Positions 38,109 through 47,096 of a stretch of 64,000 nucleotides of DNA are shown here, piece by piece (the stretch's first letter is position 1; every line of letters begins with the position of its first letter). Below the pieces are notes generated by a model. It ran no database searches and was not told the origin of the DNA. It worked only from the letters and a program-made list of their open reading frames with translations. The position numbers and the translations under genes were made by a program. The DNA is taken from assembly GCA_050287845.1 (NCBI GenBank), contig JBNKCR010000018.1:1-64000 (forward strand). Direction: 5' to 3'. This DNA is from Polyangia bacterium. Lineage in GTDB: Bacteria > Myxococcota_A > Polyangia > JAAYKL01.

Positions 38109-38732
38109 TCACATTCGACGATAAACGCCCATGACCACCCCCAGCAATTGCATGGGGAGAAAATCCTGGCGACGTACCATCACAGGAGCACAATTGCTGT
38201 TTGCGGGAACAAACCGGATATGATCACGCTCGGGATGATAGTACCGAACCGCTGCGTTGTCGCCGAGCAGCGCCACAACGACATCGCCTTTTTCGGCAAA
38301 CATCTGTTTTTTCACAAAAATAAAATCGCCGTTGTGAATTCCGGCCTGAAGCATGGCATCGCCGTTTACCCACATGCCAAAAACTTCTTTGGTGTTGCCA
38401 AGAAGGAATCGGTCAACCGTAATGTAGTCTTCAATATTCTGTTCGGCCAGAACAGGTTGTCCGGCTGTGACCCGACTCACAACAGGAATCTTCACGGTAT
38501 CCACCTGCTTTTTTTCTTCCATGTTCACAGGTCGGAGTGCCCGGGATTTCATATCTTCCCGTTTGAGATACCCCTTTCGTTCCAATGCGCGGAGATGATC
38601 GTTCACGCCATTGGTTGAACGAATCCCCATGTGACGTCCAATTTCTCTCAGTGTTGGGGGATAGCCACGATCTGCAATGGAACTGGTGATATAATCGAGA
38701 ACTTTTTCCTGTCTCTTGGTCAATCCTTGCAT
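38109..38732 (-). CDS. lexA: LexA repressor, catalytic Ser/Lys dyad substituted
   Basis: LTKRQ, GYPPTLREIG..MGIRSTNGVNDHLRALERKG winged HTH; VTAG.P cleavage loop; S24-like domain reads GDAM and AVR; GGAGG RBS. Confidence 0.93.
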   Translation of the reverse strand: MQGLTKRQEKVLDYITSSIADRGYPPTLREIGRHMGIRSTNGVNDHLRALERKGYLKREDMKSRALRPVNMEEKKQVDTVKIPVVSRVTAGQPVLAEQNIEDYITVDRFLLGNTKEVFGMWVNGDAMLQAGIHNGDFIFVKKQMFAEKGDVVVALLGDNAAVRYYHPERDHIRFVPANSNCAPVMVRRQDFLPMQLLGVVMGVYRRM

Positions 38733-38788
38733 ATAAAATACTCCTCCACAAAAAGACAACCTGTTATTTGGTGCAGTAATTGATTGTT

Positions 38789-38818
38789 ATACTACTGAAC
38801 AGCCGGTTACGGAGTCAA
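38789..38818 (-). promoter_or_regulatory. Sigma70-like lexA promoter with an overlapping candidate LexA box
   Basis: Minus strand TTGACT-18 nt-TAGTAT; the spacer contains GTAACCGGCTGTTCAG, ending in the GTTCAG half-site of myxobacterial LexA boxes. Confidence 0.55.
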
Positions 38819-38864: not shown

Positions 38865-41800
38865 CTAACGGATATCAATTTGTCCACTGTTCATATGTTC
38901 GGTTGTCCGCAGGAATTGCTGATAATCGGAATAGTGTTCCGGAGAAACGCGGTCGATGTGAATATCAGCGGTCATCTCCACCGTTAATTGTTGATTCCCT
39001 TGCGAAAACTGCTGACAGTAGCCGGCTTGCGGCGTTGTGATACGGATGCATGCATCCTGGGGAGTCTTTTTCACTTTCATTGATGATGGCAGTGATATGT
39101 GCACGATTCGACGTGTTTTCTGGTAGGCAGCCAGCACCAGCGGCAGCATTCTCGAGGATTCGCCGCTGGAAAACTGCGTGAAATCCACCGACAGTGGCAG
39201 GTTTAAATGTTGCCCATCATCCGTGAACTGTACTATATCAGGTACGTCTATATTACATTCAACAATGAGCGGTTCCTGAAGTGCCGACTCATTACGTATG
39301 GTGTACGTATTGAGAACCGCTTCGGGAAAGTAGCCGCTGAGCAGATGGGTTTCAATCAGTTTTCGCCGTTGTGACGAGGGTTTCTGCAGTTCTTCGCGAA
39401 GATATGCCGCCTCGTCTCCCTTGAGTGACAGGGTAACAGTACCGGTCGCATTGCCATCAACCGAAACCTTCAGTGATGCGTCCACTGTTGTTTCGTCTTC
39501 TGGAATCTGTCCCTTATCCATTTTTTCAATACTGCAACTTTGTGGAAGCAAAGTGGATTGATTTCGCAGGTGGGTGGGTATCAGACCAATTGGTCCGTAT
39601 TTCTGATCGAGACTTATCCATCGGTTGTCTGAAAGCTTCACAACGGGAACGGTGTATCGGTTCAATTGGGCAACATTTGCCTGGGTGCTGTCGTCCCATG
39701 GGGTACTCGCGATGCCCAATTCGGCTGTCAGACCTGAAAGCCTGGCCATATATACAAAAAGTCGCGCTCTGTTTCCCCGTCGTCGACTGAATATATGGGA
39801 GGCTGGCTCAAACCACTGCATATCATCTGCTATGTTCGTCATAATCCAGTTGTATATTGCCGCTGCCTTTGCATCAGGATCCGGGCCTACATCTCTGAGA
39901 ATATGGGTGTTGATAAACCGGATAATCTCCGGGTCCGGCTGGGATTTGCCATGAAGCTGTCTGTTCAGCCATTGGCAATATTCATTCATGGATGCATTGG
40001 CGGTGACACGCACGGATGGCAGATACTCCACCGGATCCGGTGCACTCGGTTCGCTGGATAAAGGGGGAATATTCCTGGCCCGAAAGGTGACAGTCTGTAT
40101 TCCATCGAAATGGTTTTCTTCCGGTTGAGGTGCATTTCCCCGAATATCGTATTGCATTCGCGCCCCTGCCGGCGCGACAACAATCAGTTCAGAACGAACG
40201 AAGGTGGACTGAAAATCCCGGAAGAAAAAAGGTTCCGTGTCAAAACCACCGGGAAAGATTGAATGGGGCGGCGCATGGGTGAGGCTTTCAAACTCGATGA
40301 AATCTCCAACCGCCAGATGGGGCAGGGAGATACTGGATTTATACTCAACAGAAGTGGGATACAGAATTTCGAGATTGGGTTTGATCACTCGGGCCGTCAG
40401 GATTTCCGCCCCTGGCGGTACGTCCAGTTCACCGTGGGTATCCACCGCATCTACGGAGTTCACTTTTCCAATCCAATGGGTCAGCTGCATGCCCGAACCG
40501 AAATCATCCACGAGATACACCATCCGGTCGAGAATCCACGCAAAATCGGTGGATACATCGGGATTCTCCGCAAGGTGCGCGCGGATGGTCTGAAGGCCGT
40601 CGATACGATAGGATTCAATTGCTGATTTTCCGGTGACGAGTTCGCATGTGTTAAAAAAGTCCGGATTCATTGGCCAGAGTGTCATTCTCCCACAGATTTT
40701 CCTGGCCTTTTTCACTTCTCCCGCTGCCAGGTAGGCATCAAGAAGCAGGATTTGGGTTTGAATGTCCAGAGGGAATTTCGATGCGGTTTCTTCAAGCTTG
40801 GAAATACTTTTCTGCAGGTGGCCGGCGTTTGACAATGTGCTGGCCACATTCAATTGCAAATCAAGGTTGTCGGGCTGCAAGGCCGCGATTTGGCGAATCC
40901 GGTTGGCCGCTTCGCTGAACTTTCCGTTCCGAGCCAATTCCGTGGCAAAAACCGATGATGCGGCCGCGCATTGAGAAATGTTTCTGGAAGCGCGTTCTGC
41001 AAGATCGTAGTTCTCATCGCCAAGGGCAAGGGCATATTCCCAGTTATGCACTGCACAGTTGGCGCCCACCAGTTTCTTCAATTCATCCAGTGTGTGGTGT
41101 GCAGATTTCTTCCATTGATTGTCACGATAGTAATCCAGCAGGGTGAAATACAGGATCGGCTCCGTGGGCACCGTCGCAATCGCTTGTTCCAGCATCGCAA
41201 TGGCATCTGCTGTTCTGCCATTCCGTTGTTCGTGCTCCGCGAGAAACACTGCGGCTCTGGCAAAATGGGCATTCTGTTCCAGGGCACCCCGATACAGCGA
41301 GCGCGCATTTTCCATACCGGTTTCAAACGCATTGAAGGGTGTCATCAGCTCGTATTCCGCACGACGCAACTGTAGCCGGGCAACGACGTGTTTACGAGGC
41401 ACACGCGGATTGAGCCATGACACAGGGTCGACATTCCAGATATCGTATTGCATTTTGGCCAACGTGGCAGATTCGGTCTGCGGTACGGGAACCGGCATTG
41501 TATGAGTGGCGCCCGGCGCGGTATGATGGGCAGAGAGGCGCCAGACTGTACCCGAAGCGACAGCTTCCATCCCGTCGGTGAGCACAGAGAGGGAAAACGC
41601 CGGGGTATATTCCGGAGAATACGCTTCAATCCGTACTTCGTGGACCCCCTGTATCAATGGAACAGAAAACCACCTGTTCTCTGGAAGCCACCGGGCCTCA
41701 GACCTCTGTGCCCACGCCTCATGGCCATTAATCCATACGCGCATGTCCGCGGTGCCATGAAGACGAAAATAGAAGGTGCCGGACTGGTCTGCCCGAATGG

Positions 41801-42518
41801 TTGTTCTGGCCACCACTGTGCCGGAAAACTGATTCATCGGCGGGTCAGCGGTGATGTGACATACGGAATACTCTCTGTCATGCACTGGCAATGAGGGGCG
41901 ACCACCGCCACCTTCCAGCGCTTGGGGCCAGACATCCAGACGCCTCAGCGCTTCAACAGATTGCTGTCCCTTTCTATCCGCACCAAATGTTCCCGCGATG
42001 GTCCAGGAGGTGATGCAGCCGGTACTTGCCAGTACTGCAGCAGATTCCCCGGGATTCCCGCTGTTCTGGAGAAATGAAAAATGCAGGGTTTTCAGTTGAA
42101 ACACGGCTTCTGGCGCCAACTCGCCAGGACGGTTGGACCAGCTGGTGAGCCATGGTGTGAGGCGGTCTTCGAAATCCCGGACCCTGTTGCGGATTTCCAC
42201 AATCGCCACAGCCGCCGCCAGACCTTCCCAATGAAGCGCCCTGGATTTTCGCGCCGCTTCCACCGTCTCGATATAGCGCTCCAGTGCCAACTCCGGTCGG
42301 CCGGTGTCATTATATACAGTGGCGAGCAGAAACCGGTCTCCGGGGGTGTCGCGTTTTATCAGCTTCTGTTCGAGGTCGGCATCCTCTATGTCTGAGAAAT
42401 ACAGCGGCAAGACTTTTTCAGACAACGTTTTTGAATGCTTCAACCCTGATGCGCACCCGCAACAGAGCAGAAGGGGGGAAAGAATTATCCATACTGATTT
42501 CAGAGTTTGTTTCATCAT
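38865..42518 (-). CDS. Large TPR / DUF3857 / transglutaminase-like lipoprotein (catalytic Cys absent)
   Basis: CCGC lipobox-like, TPR segments, ARVIKP...L.VGD.IE DUF3857-like region, IYNWI...SRRRGNRARL core. Confidence 0.75.
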   Translation of the reverse strand: MMKQTLKSVWIILSPLLLCCGCASGLKHSKTLSEKVLPLYFSDIEDADLEQKLIKRDTPGDRFLLATVYNDTGRPELALERYIETVEAARKSRALHWEGLAAAVAIVEIRNRVRDFEDRLTPWLTSWSNRPGELAPEAVFQLKTLHFSFLQNSGNPGESAAVLASTGCITSWTIAGTFGADRKGQQSVEALRRLDVWPQALEGGGGRPSLPVHDREYSVCHITADPPMNQFSGTVVARTTIRADQSGTFYFRLHGTADMRVWINGHEAWAQRSEARWLPENRWFSVPLIQGVHEVRIEAYSPEYTPAFSLSVLTDGMEAVASGTVWRLSAHHTAPGATHTMPVPVPQTESATLAKMQYDIWNVDPVSWLNPRVPRKHVVARLQLRRAEYELMTPFNAFETGMENARSLYRGALEQNAHFARAAVFLAEHEQRNGRTADAIAMLEQAIATVPTEPILYFTLLDYYRDNQWKKSAHHTLDELKKLVGANCAVHNWEYALALGDENYDLAERASRNISQCAAASSVFATELARNGKFSEAANRIRQIAALQPDNLDLQLNVASTLSNAGHLQKSISKLEETASKFPLDIQTQILLLDAYLAAGEVKKARKICGRMTLWPMNPDFFNTCELVTGKSAIESYRIDGLQTIRAHLAENPDVSTDFAWILDRMVYLVDDFGSGMQLTHWIGKVNSVDAVDTHGELDVPPGAEILTARVIKPNLEILYPTSVEYKSSISLPHLAVGDFIEFESLTHAPPHSIFPGGFDTEPFFFRDFQSTFVRSELIVVAPAGARMQYDIRGNAPQPEENHFDGIQTVTFRARNIPPLSSEPSAPDPVEYLPSVRVTANASMNEYCQWLNRQLHGKSQPDPEIIRFINTHILRDVGPDPDAKAAAIYNWIMTNIADDMQWFEPASHIFSRRRGNRARLFVYMARLSGLTAELGIASTPWDDSTQANVAQLNRYTVPVVKLSDNRWISLDQKYGPIGLIPTHLRNQSTLLPQSCSIEKMDKGQIPEDETTVDASLKVSVDGNATGTVTLSLKGDEAAYLREELQKPSSQRRKLIETHLLSGYFPEAVLNTYTIRNESALQEPLIVECNIDVPDIVQFTDDGQHLNLPLSVDFTQFSSGESSRMLPLVLAAYQKTRRIVHISLPSSMKVKKTPQDACIRITTPQAGYCQQFSQGNQQLTVEMTADIHIDRVSPEHYSDYQQFLRTTEHMNSGQIDIR

Positions 42519-45500
42519 GGCCGTTCATTCCGGAGATGGAGAGTAATCTGTCGGCGTTCCATGGCATCGATTTTCAGAATAAAATCCATAAATGCATTGT
42601 ACTGCTCTGGCAGCACAACCTGTTGCCTGAAAATCAAGGAACGGGTCACCGCAGCGCCTTCCGGGGTGGCACGGACGATTCGGCGATAAACGCCAAACTC
42701 GGATTCCATCACCAATTCACCAACTGGAATTCTGGCTGTCATTTCTTTGGGAACAACGTATTGCACGTCGAGCGAACTCGTTCTGGCCGGTCCGAGAACA
42801 AGAGGATGAACCCGCTTTTTCAGTTGAGCATACTTGCGTTTCAGATAGAGCGGCGGAAGCAGGCGAAAGGTGGCGACATTTTTATTGATGTGGCAGAAAT
42901 TTGCGACCGATGCGTCAAAATGGATTTCCGGGGGCGCCTCCAGGTCATTCATCAAACGGAAATCCGCACGATCCACATGAAGTCCAGGATACTTTTCAGT
43001 GAACTGTTCCTCCAGTATATCGCGGTTCTGAGCCGTGGAATAATTTTTGCGCAGCCATGGCGCAAACAATGGGCCACGAGCGATGATGTCTGTCGTCATT
43101 TTCATGCTGCAGTCCGATTCAATCCGCAGCACTGACGATTCGTTGAAAACCGACTGGGTTTCGCCGGTCACTGGCGTTTTACGCAGCGCCACTTCAGTGG
43201 TTCCGATAACCAGCGCACTGATACCCTGATCTTCAAATGGCAAATCTCCGGTTCCGTGAAACGTTGCGGTGCCATCCAGCCACAAATCATCATCCGGCAA
43301 GTAGGCAATGGCATGATTGAACAATGCCAGCGACGGATACTTCATCTTGAGTTCTCCGGCGGAACGCGTTCGAACCAGAGCGAGATGAGCTCTGATGCCT
43401 GCTTCCCTCAACATGGCTACCAGAAGAGAGGCGGTATCTTTGCAGTCTCCGAATCCCCGGGCAAGCACCCGGGGGGTACTGTAGGGTTTGTACCCATGAA
43501 TGCCGAATTCCAGTCCCACATACCGGATGTTGGTGGTGACCCAGTTGTAAATAGCCGCTATCTTCTGTTTTTTACTTTTCAGTTTTGCGGTGAGTTCCCT
43601 GACCAGTTGCTGAACCGCGTCTCCTCCCAGCAGTTGTGGGCGAATCAGATCTCGATACCACCGTTCCATATCGGTGAAGGATTCCCAGGACGTTGCATGA
43701 ATCACCTTTACCAGTGACATGCTTCCCGGTATACCGGGCTCTTCGGGGATGGCTGGCAGGTCGCTGGCAGTATATACATTTGTGACAGTGCTGCTATTTT
43801 GTATCACCCGTGGCGGCGCAAGGAAATCCGCTTCAATCCGAATATTGAAATCCGCAGGACGTATCAGTACAAACTGAAACTGCTCCACCGGCATGTCTCC
43901 ATTGACTGGCACAATCGCACCGAAGTACCGGCCGAACATGCGCTCTCTCCGGATGTCATCAATCCGAAACTGATACTCCACAACGTCACCAATTGCAGGT
44001 TTGGGCACTTCAATCACTTCGGCGTCAATATCGTAGTACAGACGATACCAGGGTTCTGAAACCGGGAATGTACCGCGTGCTGTGGCTTCAAGTGTCCGTC
44101 CATCCGCGCGGTACAGTCGTGCTTTCTGAATACGGACAGACTGATCTGATGAAAACTGCTCACTGTATTGTTGCCATTGTCGCGCTCCATCTTCAGTGGC
44201 AATAGCCACCGCCACCTGGGTCACGGTGGAGGACAACCCGGATGCATGGACCCGCGTGATGGTATTGTTCACCAGGTAGCAGTCCTTCCGTTGCTGCAGA
44301 CAGCGTTCCTTCCGCTTTTTCAACTCCGTTTCCCCGATGAGATACGGCGTGTCAAAAGAATCAGAAGGACGTAGATGTTCAAGCAGGTCGCGCAGTGCTT
44401 TATCGCCCGGATTCTGCTGAAGTGCTTCGCGGTAATGACGGATTGCCAGTGCTTCATTGGTTTTGAGGTAGTATTCTCCCGCAAGTTTCCGGAACTCACT
44501 TACTCCCGGCGCCTCCAGGAGTAGAGCACTCAATAATTTTTCCTGTGCGTGACCAGGAGCCGCCATTCGCAGACGCAACAGCTCAGTCAGCATCTCCACG
44601 GGGGGAGCGCCAATTTTTTTCCACTGCGCCAGAACAGCCCGGGATCTGGATTCCATTCCTTTGCCTGTGATGTGAAGTTTGCGCAAATGAATGCTGAAGT
44701 CTGAATACGCCGATTCGATGGCGTTTGAAAAAATTTGCGTTGAGTAGATGTCAGCAACTGTTCCCACCAAACTTTCGGCTGCACATTGTTTTTCCATGGG
44801 GGTCGCGTCCGGTCGACTCAATTCATTTCGCAGTTTCCGGGCCGATTCCGGCAGGGTATGGGCGTACAGCCCGAGCAGTGCACAGCGGGCTTCTGGCTGG
44901 GATGGATTCTTTTTCAATATCTTCTGGAGCCGCACGATATTCTCCCGGTCGGGTCGGGTATCCAGACTCAACAGCAACAGTTGTATCGCCGCGACGTTCC
45001 GGGAGGCGTCATCTATGTTCACTTGACGGTACGCCTGTCTTTTTTCGTTTACATCATCGGAGAGGGACGCCCATGTTTTGCATGGGGAGAGGGTTCCCAA
45101 CGTTTCACACGCGGTCTGGGCGGCATCTTTTACTTCGGTATCTTTACCAACGCTTCCTGTAAGTTGCGCGTATTCAGCATAATTGCCCAGATGGGTGGGG
45201 CGCACATTTCTTTTCCCGGGACGGGGACGCAACATGTCGAGCAATGTACGATGTGGTACGATGGCTGTCCGGATGTGGTCGTAGGTTCTGAATCCCTGTG
45301 CCTGCGATGAAACCGAATGCAGGGGCTCGCCCGATGGCGAGAGAATTCGAGCGAAGAATTCTGACGTTCCCGATTCATTGCTGCAAATCTTTACCGTGAG
45401 AAGATTTTCTCCAGCAGGCAGATTCAATGGGACGTCGTGACGATTGATGTCAGCCCGATACCAGTTTGTATCTTCGAGTATCAGGGTGTCGTTCAAGAAA

Positions 45501-46120
45501 ACCCGGGCCTGACCGCCCGCACCGAACAACAGGTGATGACGACCGCCCCGGGGGGATGCCACGGTGGTCTGCGCCATGACACAGATATTTTCTGTTGCTG
45601 AGAACACCGACTCAAATGTTACTTTCCCCAGTCGTCGCGTCAGCCAGCTCGATGGAAATACACATGGTGCATCGATTTCAGATGGTACGCAATTGGGCGA
45701 TATTTCCGGTTGGCTCATATGATAAGCGCTGGAAAGAAACTTCTCGGTCAGTCCGATGGATGACTCATTGGGAAACGGACCTGTGATTTGCCAATCGGTT
45801 AAAAAACCCATATCCGCAACCGCGGCATTGGCTTTTGCTGGGTGGCCGGTGAGCAGATTCAGTTTGGCCAACAAGTATTGGATGCGCGTCCTGGCAGCCG
45901 GATGCAGTCCTTTCAGTTGCATTGTTCCTGTCAGCACCTGATGGATCATGTCTTTTCCAACTATTGGATATTCTTCGAAAATTTTCAAAACGTACAGGTC
46001 AGCGAATCGGGACCCGGGGGAGAGTGCAAGCATTTCAGCGGGGCGGGATTCCCCGCGAGCCGACGCGACACTGCCGACGAACGGGATGAGTATGATCAGA
46101 AAAATAATAAAATGTTTCAT
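42515..46120 (-). CDS. DUF3857 and transglutaminase domain-containing protein
   Basis: Signal peptide at MKHFIIFL (46120); GDVVEY, IRYVGLEFGIHGYKPY, GDCKD, FNHAI, WLDGT triad; ATGA overlap with the downstream gene. Confidence 0.85.
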   Translation of the reverse strand: MKHFIIFLIILIPFVGSVASARGESRPAEMLALSPGSRFADLYVLKIFEEYPIVGKDMIHQVLTGTMQLKGLHPAARTRIQYLLAKLNLLTGHPAKANAAVADMGFLTDWQITGPFPNESSIGLTEKFLSSAYHMSQPEISPNCVPSEIDAPCVFPSSWLTRRLGKVTFESVFSATENICVMAQTTVASPRGGRHHLLFGAGGQARVFLNDTLILEDTNWYRADINRHDVPLNLPAGENLLTVKICSNESGTSEFFARILSPSGEPLHSVSSQAQGFRTYDHIRTAIVPHRTLLDMLRPRPGKRNVRPTHLGNYAEYAQLTGSVGKDTEVKDAAQTACETLGTLSPCKTWASLSDDVNEKRQAYRQVNIDDASRNVAAIQLLLLSLDTRPDRENIVRLQKILKKNPSQPEARCALLGLYAHTLPESARKLRNELSRPDATPMEKQCAAESLVGTVADIYSTQIFSNAIESAYSDFSIHLRKLHITGKGMESRSRAVLAQWKKIGAPPVEMLTELLRLRMAAPGHAQEKLLSALLLEAPGVSEFRKLAGEYYLKTNEALAIRHYREALQQNPGDKALRDLLEHLRPSDSFDTPYLIGETELKKRKERCLQQRKDCYLVNNTITRVHASGLSSTVTQVAVAIATEDGARQWQQYSEQFSSDQSVRIQKARLYRADGRTLEATARGTFPVSEPWYRLYYDIDAEVIEVPKPAIGDVVEYQFRIDDIRRERMFGRYFGAIVPVNGDMPVEQFQFVLIRPADFNIRIEADFLAPPRVIQNSSTVTNVYTASDLPAIPEEPGIPGSMSLVKVIHATSWESFTDMERWYRDLIRPQLLGGDAVQQLVRELTAKLKSKKQKIAAIYNWVTTNIRYVGLEFGIHGYKPYSTPRVLARGFGDCKDTASLLVAMLREAGIRAHLALVRTRSAGELKMKYPSLALFNHAIAYLPDDDLWLDGTATFHGTGDLPFEDQGISALVIGTTEVALRKTPVTGETQSVFNESSVLRIESDCSMKMTTDIIARGPLFAPWLRKNYSTAQNRDILEEQFTEKYPGLHVDRADFRLMNDLEAPPEIHFDASVANFCHINKNVATFRLLPPLYLKRKYAQLKKRVHPLVLGPARTSSLDVQYVVPKEMTARIPVGELVMESEFGVYRRIVRATPEGAAVTRSLIFRQQVVLPEQYNAFMDFILKIDAMERRQITLHLRNERP

Positions 46121-46406
46121 TGCTGGCAAGTATATGAGGCTGCTGTTGAAAAGCAAATTGCATCTGCTGCAGACAATGGCGAATGATGTGATTTTGACGG
46201 GTATATCCCATTTCTTTTTTCTGCAATGCATTCTATTCTGATGACATCCGGCGACGACCGAAGTTCCCGAGCAACCGCTGGATTGCGAAACGCCTGAGAC
46301 TGACACATTGAAATTCCCGCTATTCAAACCACCCCGGCAGGTTGAATTTCGGGGAAACAATGTGGTAGGACCGGTTCGATAAATTCTCGAAAAAAAGGAA
46401 TCCCCC

Positions 46407-47096
46407 ATGAAACCATGGATTAAAATCGATGAAAAGCAGACTGCCGATGGCATGCTTCAGCTGATGCGCCGGGGAAAAAAGGATTTCATTATCAAACTGG
46501 ATAACCAGATTCTGATGAACAGCCATCTCAGTTTGACTGAGCAGGCGCTGGCGACCAGTGCTGTCGGTCGATTGCAGAATCCGAACGGTGCGCGGATTCT
46601 GATTAGCGGGCTGGGAATGGGGTACACGCTTAAGTCGGCATTAGATGTATTACCATCAAGGTGCAGCGTTACCGTAGCGGAACTCAATCCCATTGTTGTT
46701 GAGTGGTGCAGGGGAGAACTGGGATCACTGACGGAATACCCGCTGAATGACCATCGGGTGAGGGTAGTCACCGGCGATGTGAAGGAAGTTATCATGGATG
46801 CTGCCTATCTCGCCCAAAATCCGTTCGACGCCATTATTCTGGACCTCTACGAAGGAACTTCGGAAGCCAATTTCGATGATATGCACGACCACTACGGTCT
46901 GGAAGCATTGCAGCGAACAAAGGACGCCCTGAAAAACAACGGTGTGCTGGCGGTGTGGACCGAGGGCGAGGACCGGGGATTTGAAAGACGCCTTGGACGC
47001 GCCGGGTTTACTGTTGAACAGACCCGTCCCGGCAAGGGTGGACCGCGTCATGTGGTCTATGTTGCGGCAAAGAAATCGAACCGTCGGGGCAAATGA
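46407..47096 (+). CDS. Spermidine-synthase-like class I SAM-dependent methyltransferase
   Basis: LMNS....TE..LA, ILISGLGMGYTL, VAEL, GDV, FDAIILD, GVLAVW. Confidence 0.82.
   Translation: MKPWIKIDEKQTADGMLQLMRRGKKDFIIKLDNQILMNSHLSLTEQALATSAVGRLQNPNGARILISGLGMGYTLKSALDVLPSRCSVTVAELNPIVVEWCRGELGSLTEYPLNDHRVRVVTGDVKEVIMDAAYLAQNPFDAIILDLYEGTSEANFDDMHDHYGLEALQRTKDALKNNGVLAVWTEGEDRGFERRLGRAGFTVEQTRPGKGGPRHVVYVAAKKSNRRGK

Follow-up and report, generated by a model that had tools for sequence, protein, structure and literature searches.

Can a chromosomal LexA that lacks both residues of its Ser-Lys catalytic dyad still act as the SOS repressor of its host and, if it cannot, what does it regulate and which protein answers DNA damage in its place? 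A non-cleavable LexA is the classic means of blocking SOS induction, usually at a cost. The question is posed by lexA1, the gene for a catalytically dead LexA of 207 amino acids (ORF and translation at 38109..38732, minus strand) within a 64,000-nucleotide stretch of Polyangia DNA, hereafter the window. A first-pass annotation had predicted a non-cleavable repressor and proposed that SOS control had been rewired or that the protein had become a repurposed global regulator.

The reading developed below, which we hold to be moderately probable, is that LexA1, uncoupled from DNA damage, represses itself and a few housekeeping genes, and that the mutasome is run by a second protein, LexA2. A lineage that has fixed an uncleavable LexA, apparently twice and by the same Lys-to-Arg change, would indicate that a master regulator can uncouple from its signal once a paralog carries the damage-inducible genes. 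The dead and intact sister genomes within one family form a natural before-and-after series, and the predicted operators of both LexAs make the division-of-labor model testable with two purified proteins.

The lexA1 gene and its product

LexA1 belongs to the LexA repressor family by its score of 201.8 bits against the TIGR00498 profile (cut-off 110.95). It comprises (i) an N-terminal winged-helix DNA-binding domain (PF01726, 93.9 bits; residues 1-65, 38538..38732) that is intact, as the first-pass annotation had stated, and has an intact recognition helix, STNGVNDHL, and (ii) a C-terminal peptidase S24-like domain (PF00717, 86.7 bits; residues 83-190, 38163..38486) that is retained without the dyad; these and all features of the locus given below lie on the minus strand. 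Alignment with solved structures pairs Ala126 (GCC, 38355..38357) with the catalytic serine, E. coli S119, and Arg163 (CGG, 38244..38246) with the catalytic lysine, K156, in agreement with the original assignment. By the defining features of S24 repressors, taken from the accessible part of PMC8565304, LexA1 is not a canonical self-cleaving SOS repressor, since the Ser-Lys dyad is missing. In the segment N159-A160-A161 (38250..38258), residues 159 and 161 replace a Glu and a Thr (E. coli E152 and T154) that are present in 94/95 and 95/95 intact relatives, respectively. The scissile loop, S86-G91 (38460..38477), reads SRVTAG; it retains the Ala90-Gly91 bond, the equivalents of G80 and A83 are altered, and the loop is relaxed among dead lineages. 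A single-sequence structure prediction of LexA1 was too poor for use, with a mean pLDDT of 48 and values under 50 in the C-terminal domain.

LexA1 has very probably lost self-cleavage, as initially predicted, because S-to-A and K156R substitutions each block cleavage in model LexAs. As far as the accessible text of these papers goes, S125A abolishes cleavage of P. aeruginosa LexA (PMC11787620) and K156R has been employed as an uncleavable allele of E. coli LexA (PMC5760743). LexA1 matches engineered non-inducible alleles such as S119A and K156R of E. coli and S125A of P. aeruginosa both in the residues exchanged and in where they lie. In contrast to them, its substitutions arose naturally, occur together, and have been fixed by selection.

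The coding region is preceded by a ribosome-binding site, GGAGG (38743..38747), and a sigma-70-like promoter (38789..38818) composed of TTGACT (38813-38818) and TAGTAT (38789-38794), which is a consensus match only; both elements had been claimed at first pass, and the promoter layout is common to 19/19 family genomes. A predicted LexA1 operator, GTAACC-GGCT-GTTCAG (38795..38810), sits between the -35 and -10 elements, and a second candidate operator, CTGCAC-CAAA-TAACAG (38761..38776), likewise predicted, is present in the four genomes of the genus. Further upstream lie two tandem large DUF3857/transglutaminase-like genes (38865-46453; 1217 and 1312 amino acids). The nearer one, a TPR/DUF3857/transglutaminase-like gene (38865..42518), is a conserved neighbor of lexA within the family and marks the native locus.

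Distribution in the family and number of origins

The family comprises 21 genomes of uncultured Polyangia, among which lexA1 is complete in 19 and of unknown state in two. The dyad is lost in 9/19 ("dead" genomes) and retained as Ser/Lys in 10/19 ("intact" genomes). Eight of the dead genomes, namely 4/4 of the genus and four others of the family, carry the Ala/Arg pair, and the ninth carries Gly/Arg. Dead lexA1 is the native copy, because its upstream neighbor is the same as that of intact lexA (identical in 6/9 dead and 6/10 intact genomes). Outside the family, Ser/Lys was found in 60/60 class genomes whose lexA was read, these being a subset of the class. A P0132 query against 401 class genomes returned no relative above ~59% identity, and the best 30 loci of that search, which were the ones read, all have Ser/Lys; the search included the unpublished G363 and G331, and no claim depends on either.

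As the first-pass annotation had proposed, the loss of Ser and Lys was mapped on a species tree, here built from RpoB, RecA, and NrdJ with IQ-TREE fast searches. The dead genomes form two separate clades: clade A (the genus with G009, G014, and G012) and clade B (G013 and G016). Constraining the two together is rejected (AU p=0.002 from 2000 replicates, flagged by the program as too few). Both clades also stand apart in a lexA tree with the catalytic columns masked, in which a single clade of all 17 dead rows tested is rejected (p=0.028) and a union of A and B alone is not (p=0.265). Judged by these trees, two origins of dead lexA1 within the family would be the better reading, with one origin followed by allele transfer second.

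Authenticity of the substitutions and selection on lexA1

An assembly error or a decaying gene is an extremely improbable source of the two substitutions, and for this lexA1 the sequence comparisons effectively refute it. Sequencing error is excluded because the same pair recurs in the genus and in other family genomes, and the substitutions are common to several genera with differing synonymous codons. The first-pass annotation had dismissed error on the ground that Lys to CGG requires two base changes; the dismissal stands, through recurrence in relatives and independent contigs, but its argument does not, because Lys reaches Arg by one change (AGA in G014) and CGN follows synonymously. Contigs of independent studies span both codons. 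The contig of run X13 differs by one base, outside the Arg codon, and a contig of RNA library X6 covers the whole of lexA1 with CGA as its Arg codon, its library origin being no proof of transcription. Together, the 20 coding differences of X6 among those listed (28 of 30) and the one of X13 are synonymous in 21/21 cases.

Dead lexA1 is under strong purifying selection in the genus. Whole-gene omega (NG86) is 0.015-0.031 for 5/6 pairs, the sixth being saturated, and that of the C-terminal domain is 0.011-0.026; these values are rough because dS is near saturation (1.3-2.7). Decay of a duplicate, which the first-pass annotation had itself raised, is contradicted by the low omega, the native locus, the intact promoter, and the purely synonymous nature of the listed variants. 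Decay has some footing in clade B, whose two members show a raised C-terminal omega (0.38) and long branches, so that relaxation is real there.

Release of the enzyme and substrate roles

Residue conservation was compared over 141 distinct sequences (19 dead, 95 intact family-like, and 27 outgroup). Arg occupies the Lys position in 19/19 dead sequences (codons CGG, CGC, CGT, or AGA), and Ala occupies the Ser position in 16/16 clade-A sequences (GCC, GCG, or GCA). The wing motif EDMKSRAL and the STNGVNDHL core are present in all 19 dead sequences. Clade A keeps 53/59 conserved columns of the N-terminal domain, 26/46 of the C-terminal domain, and 4/13 of the cleavage loop. The loop reads GRVAAG in 1/19 dead versus 91/95 intact sequences, with its P2 Ala in 3/19 versus 95/95 and its Ala-Gly bond in 14/19 versus 122/122; the other five dead sequences have Pro-Gly, Ser-Gly, or Thr-Gly instead. 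The earlier statement that the scissile bond is kept holds for LexA1 itself and fails for these five relatives. RecA contacts were mapped from the accessible parts of PMC9926225 and bioRxiv 2023.10.30.564768. The equivalents of contacts L113 and E152 are mostly replaced in dead sequences, as are those of the loop and active-site neighbors G80, A83, A90, and T154; the equivalents of F111, V146, K135, and D151, which belong to the RecA pocket, are retained. On these patterns of columns, motifs, and RecA contacts, the enzyme role and the substrate role both appear to be released, with DNA binding and the fold retained.

Cleavage in trans had been suggested at first pass; a UmuD-like form of it, with LexA2 or a different S24 protein cutting LexA1, is very unlikely. 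It would find an Ala-Gly bond in LexA1 and in 14/19 dead sequences, an intact LexA2 in 8/9 dead genomes, and a precedent in UmuD, whose cleavage is intermolecular according to the accessible text of PMC9926225. A substrate should, however, retain Ala-Gly and the P2 Ala, and the losses at both positions disfavor cleavage in trans; several RecA-facing residues are released as well, and LexA1 and LexA2 share only ~30% identity. It is also unlikely that LexA1 remains damage-responsive through sequestration, in which activated RecA filaments would hold free LexA1 and partly derepress its targets without any cleavage. Catalytically dead LexA variants do form complexes with RecA filaments (PMC11787620, PMC9926225, and bioRxiv 2023.10.30.564768, in their accessible parts), V153 (Ala in most of the family) is retained along with the four pocket residues above, and both RecA copies keep their L2 Phe motif. 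Set against this are the relaxed or replaced equivalents of G80, A83, A90, L113, E152, and T154, the mostly hydrophobic-core character of the retained residues, and the presence of the RecA-binding pocket only in the cleavable conformation, as described in the accessible part of bioRxiv 2023.10.30.564768.

Predicted operators and regulon of LexA1

The lexA promoters of 19/19 family genomes share TTGAC-N12/13-GTTCAG-TA, a predicted autoregulatory operator. GTTCAG is the right half of the M. xanthus LexA box that was tested by gel shift (PMC9705874, accessible part). Pattern searches in relatives located a further predicted operator just upstream of the RNase G/E gene rng (TIGR00757), where it occurs in 7/9 dead, 8/10 intact, and 2/2 unknown-state genomes (17/21 in the family) and in 0/6 outgroup genomes; it is absent in G012 and G014, and its left half overlaps a possible -10 element. 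A third cluster of half-sites lies between nrdJ, for a class II ribonucleotide reductase, and a divergent ABC ATPase gene, putatively FtsE-like. At least two half-sites are found upstream of nrdJ in 18/20 genomes and none in clade B, and they are arranged in tandem in 4/9 dead versus 11/11 other genomes. The nrdJ region presumably also holds motifs resembling DnaA and NrdR boxes and, because of these and the -10 overlap at rng, another factor could own the GTTCAG sites. The rng and nrdJ sites are common to intact genomes, so the housekeeping regulon would be older than the catalytic loss.

Besides lexA, only rng and nrdJ are conserved predicted targets. Among 40 pattern matches examined in relatives (20/29 and 20/42), rng alone recurred upstream of the same gene. 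The GTTCAG half-site is mildly enriched genome-wide (617 observed versus 514 expected), and operator matches number 13 with a spacer of 4 against 2-8 for the other spacer lengths, 3/13 belonging to the training set. With so mild an over-representation and two conserved targets, the proposal of a repurposed global regulator is not supported. Two candidate LexA1 sites were rejected: that of dnaJ in G000 is missing from the other 20 genomes, and that of gyrB is unconserved across 28 loci.

The operators at recA and repair genes that characterize a canonical SOS repressor are likewise missing for LexA1 in the regions searched. In G000, no LexA1-type box was detected by the criterion applied upstream of uvrA, ssb, uvrC, recQ, mfd, and polA, which were picked by motif and some of them wrongly, nor at the starts of the recA operons. 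In relatives, the 1.5 kb upstream of recA contains no conserved LexA1 box, the recA/recN operon promoters falling outside this span.

A doubtful possibility, modeled on what has been proposed for Synechocystis LexA, is that LexA1 is non-cleavable and yet switched by a new input, which might be an ATP-dependent protease, a partner protein, a ligand, or phosphorylation. The strong constraint on the C-terminal domain in the genus and the fixed rather than drifting Arg163 are consistent with such an input, as is a near-palindromic site upstream of rpsT in 4/4 genus and 0/2 intact genomes. For Synechocystis LexA, a possible phosphorylation change at Ser173 is described in the accessible part of PMC7567884. 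Folding and dimerization would explain the C-terminal constraint equally well, and no new conserved surface is evident because the only changes that clade A has fixed besides the dyad are two conservative I-to-L substitutions. Some intact genomes are likewise enriched in near-perfect palindromes, and palindromic-site counts are similar there. A candidate site upstream of rpsF is present in 2/3 genus genomes read, the G003 locus being cut by a contig end.

LexA2, its box, and the mutasome

The search proposed at first pass for a second intact lexA and for recA yielded both in G000. Its second LexA (contig C79) has Ser, Lys, and Ala-Gly all intact and is followed by ImuA-like and ImuB-like genes. 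The lexA2 promoter box, CCATACA-N2-TGTATGG, is conserved in most family lexA2 promoters, and in G000 it marks lexA2-imuA-imuB, dnaE2, and a DUF763 gene and is also found upstream of a DNA-methylase gene; the literature searched held no match to it. LexA2 thus has the traits of a cassette regulator: an intact dyad, a place at the head of imuA-imuB, and its own palindrome shared with dnaE2. The idea that SOS control has been rearranged is supported, and the rearrangement indicated is one that the first-pass annotation had named only as a check: an intact LexA2 whose own box marks imuA-imuB and dnaE2.

lexA2 is present in 8/9 dead and 9/10 intact genomes, in G014 and G016 only as pieces that end at contig ends. 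No second LexA and no dnaE2 were found in G012 (88% complete), and no dnaE2 was found in G014. LexA2 probably came first and freed LexA1, since it is widespread in the family, including genomes with intact LexA1. G011 (L434, L444; C96) has a different LexA beside a DnaE2-like gene, replacing the family lexA2, and G014 (L431; C479) has a UmuD-like and UmuC-like pair.

G000 carries two recA genes, whose operons are fixed across the family loci read (L105:5200-8248, L106:1209-2732). One follows cinA and a 2'-5' RNA ligase gene, the other a Mg-chelatase-like gene; orthology was assigned by upstream neighbor.

A large LexA2 regulon, as the enrichment of CATAC-N4-GTATG (30 sites) might indicate, was rejected, the matches being mostly two repeated elements with four true-looking boxes. 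A short palindromic repeat of G000 with the core CATACCCCGGTATG occurs in ~20 intergenic copies, with a related variant (C99:26200, C104:4180, and many contig ends). It is REP-like, mimics the LexA2 box, and is the main source of these matches. At L098:735-3168 (C91 of G000), a C5 DNA methylase gene has a perfect LexA2-type box 130 bases upstream, and the two following ORFs look to us like nucleases. The locus may be either a restriction-modification unit that responds to damage or a promoter remnant.

A proposed division of labor between two LexA proteins

In the preferred model of a damage-uncoupled LexA1, the native family LexA would have become a pseudo-protease repressor that still dimerizes and binds a Myxococcus-type operator, N6-N4-GTTCAG, and that activated RecA can no longer switch off. 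LexA1 would repress its own promoter, and this negative autoregulation would set a fixed level for a small housekeeping set, namely rng together with the divergent region that separates nrdJ from the ABC-ATPase gene. The damage-inducible mutasome (imuA-imuB, dnaE2, and DUF763) would be under cleavable LexA2 reading CCATACA-N2-TGTATGG. We infer site binding and repression by LexA1, damage induction through LexA2, and the order of events from genome comparison.

The known systems cited next are described as in the accessible text of the papers. LexA1 is like Myxococcus xanthus LexA in its operator right half GTTCAG, small regulon, and company of two recA genes (PMC9705874). M. xanthus LexA, with the operator consensus CTRHAMRYBYGTTCAGS, is in contrast reported to be cleavable with RecA1 and has boxes at recA2 and lexA (PMC9705874), whereas LexA1 has no dyad, a left half of about GTRNAC, and rng and nrdJ as predicted targets. 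Synechocystis sp. PCC 6803 LexA is likewise a natural, chromosomal, non-cleavable LexA, and it regulates non-SOS genes (PMC3091678, PMC7567884); the loss of catalytic residues in a chromosomal LexA, which marks this type of repurposing, is found in LexA1. The Synechocystis protein differs in having Ser replaced by Asp, Ala-Gly replaced by Gly-Gly, and a broad regulon (PMC3091678, PMC7567884). Relative to that precedent, the new elements of LexA1 would be the residues changed (S to A and K to R, in several genera), the apparent recurrence, the small predicted regulon, and the intact paralog LexA2. In the Pseudomonas putida lexA2-imuA-imuB-imuC cassette, a second lexA also heads and controls a mutasome operon (PMC5261740); unlike that arrangement, the dnaE2 that shares the box is here on a separate contig, and the primary LexA has lost its dyad. 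No report of this dead-LexA lineage was found in the literature searched, a scope outside which fall supplements and most subscription papers.

Divergent copies outside the family

In a wider survey of 150 LexA representatives (50% clustering), 129/150 have Ser/Lys. Eight are plausible full-length Lys-to-Arg proteins, all of them among the 75 with an STNGV-type helix, whereas the remaining 75 contain none; 10 rows that looked truncated or frameshifted were left out before the tree of this set. The Lys-to-Arg rows outside the family are long-branched and not reliably countable as separate origins. The existence of the Ser/Arg intermediates P0105, P0124, and P0154 suggests that Lys was lost first.

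A broader reading, tentative at best, is that the Myxococcota-type LexA has repeatedly become a pseudo-protease maintained by selection, each time with Lys going to Arg before Ser went to Ala or Gly. Within the family this would have occurred at least twice, after LexA2 had taken charge of the mutasome, and it would have recurred in divergent copies elsewhere, of which one has phage-like surroundings. The signal to which the dead protein might now respond would be new and unrelated to damage, and it would tie together RNA turnover (RNase G/E), dNTP supply (NrdJ), and, in the genus, a ribosomal protein gene.

At L364:4658-6418, a dead Ala/Arg LexA with a Myxococcota-type helix lies ~25 bases after a tmRNA gene (RF00023, 107.7 bits). 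It precedes a RadC-like gene, and a phage-type endonuclease is nearby; this LexA may be mobile and act as a dominant, non-cleavable copy that prevents derepression in the host. No relatives of P0001 were found in viral contigs. Many short proteins of viral contigs L366-L429 consist of a LexA-type DNA-binding domain alone, and several of these have an STNGV helix and no protease domain.
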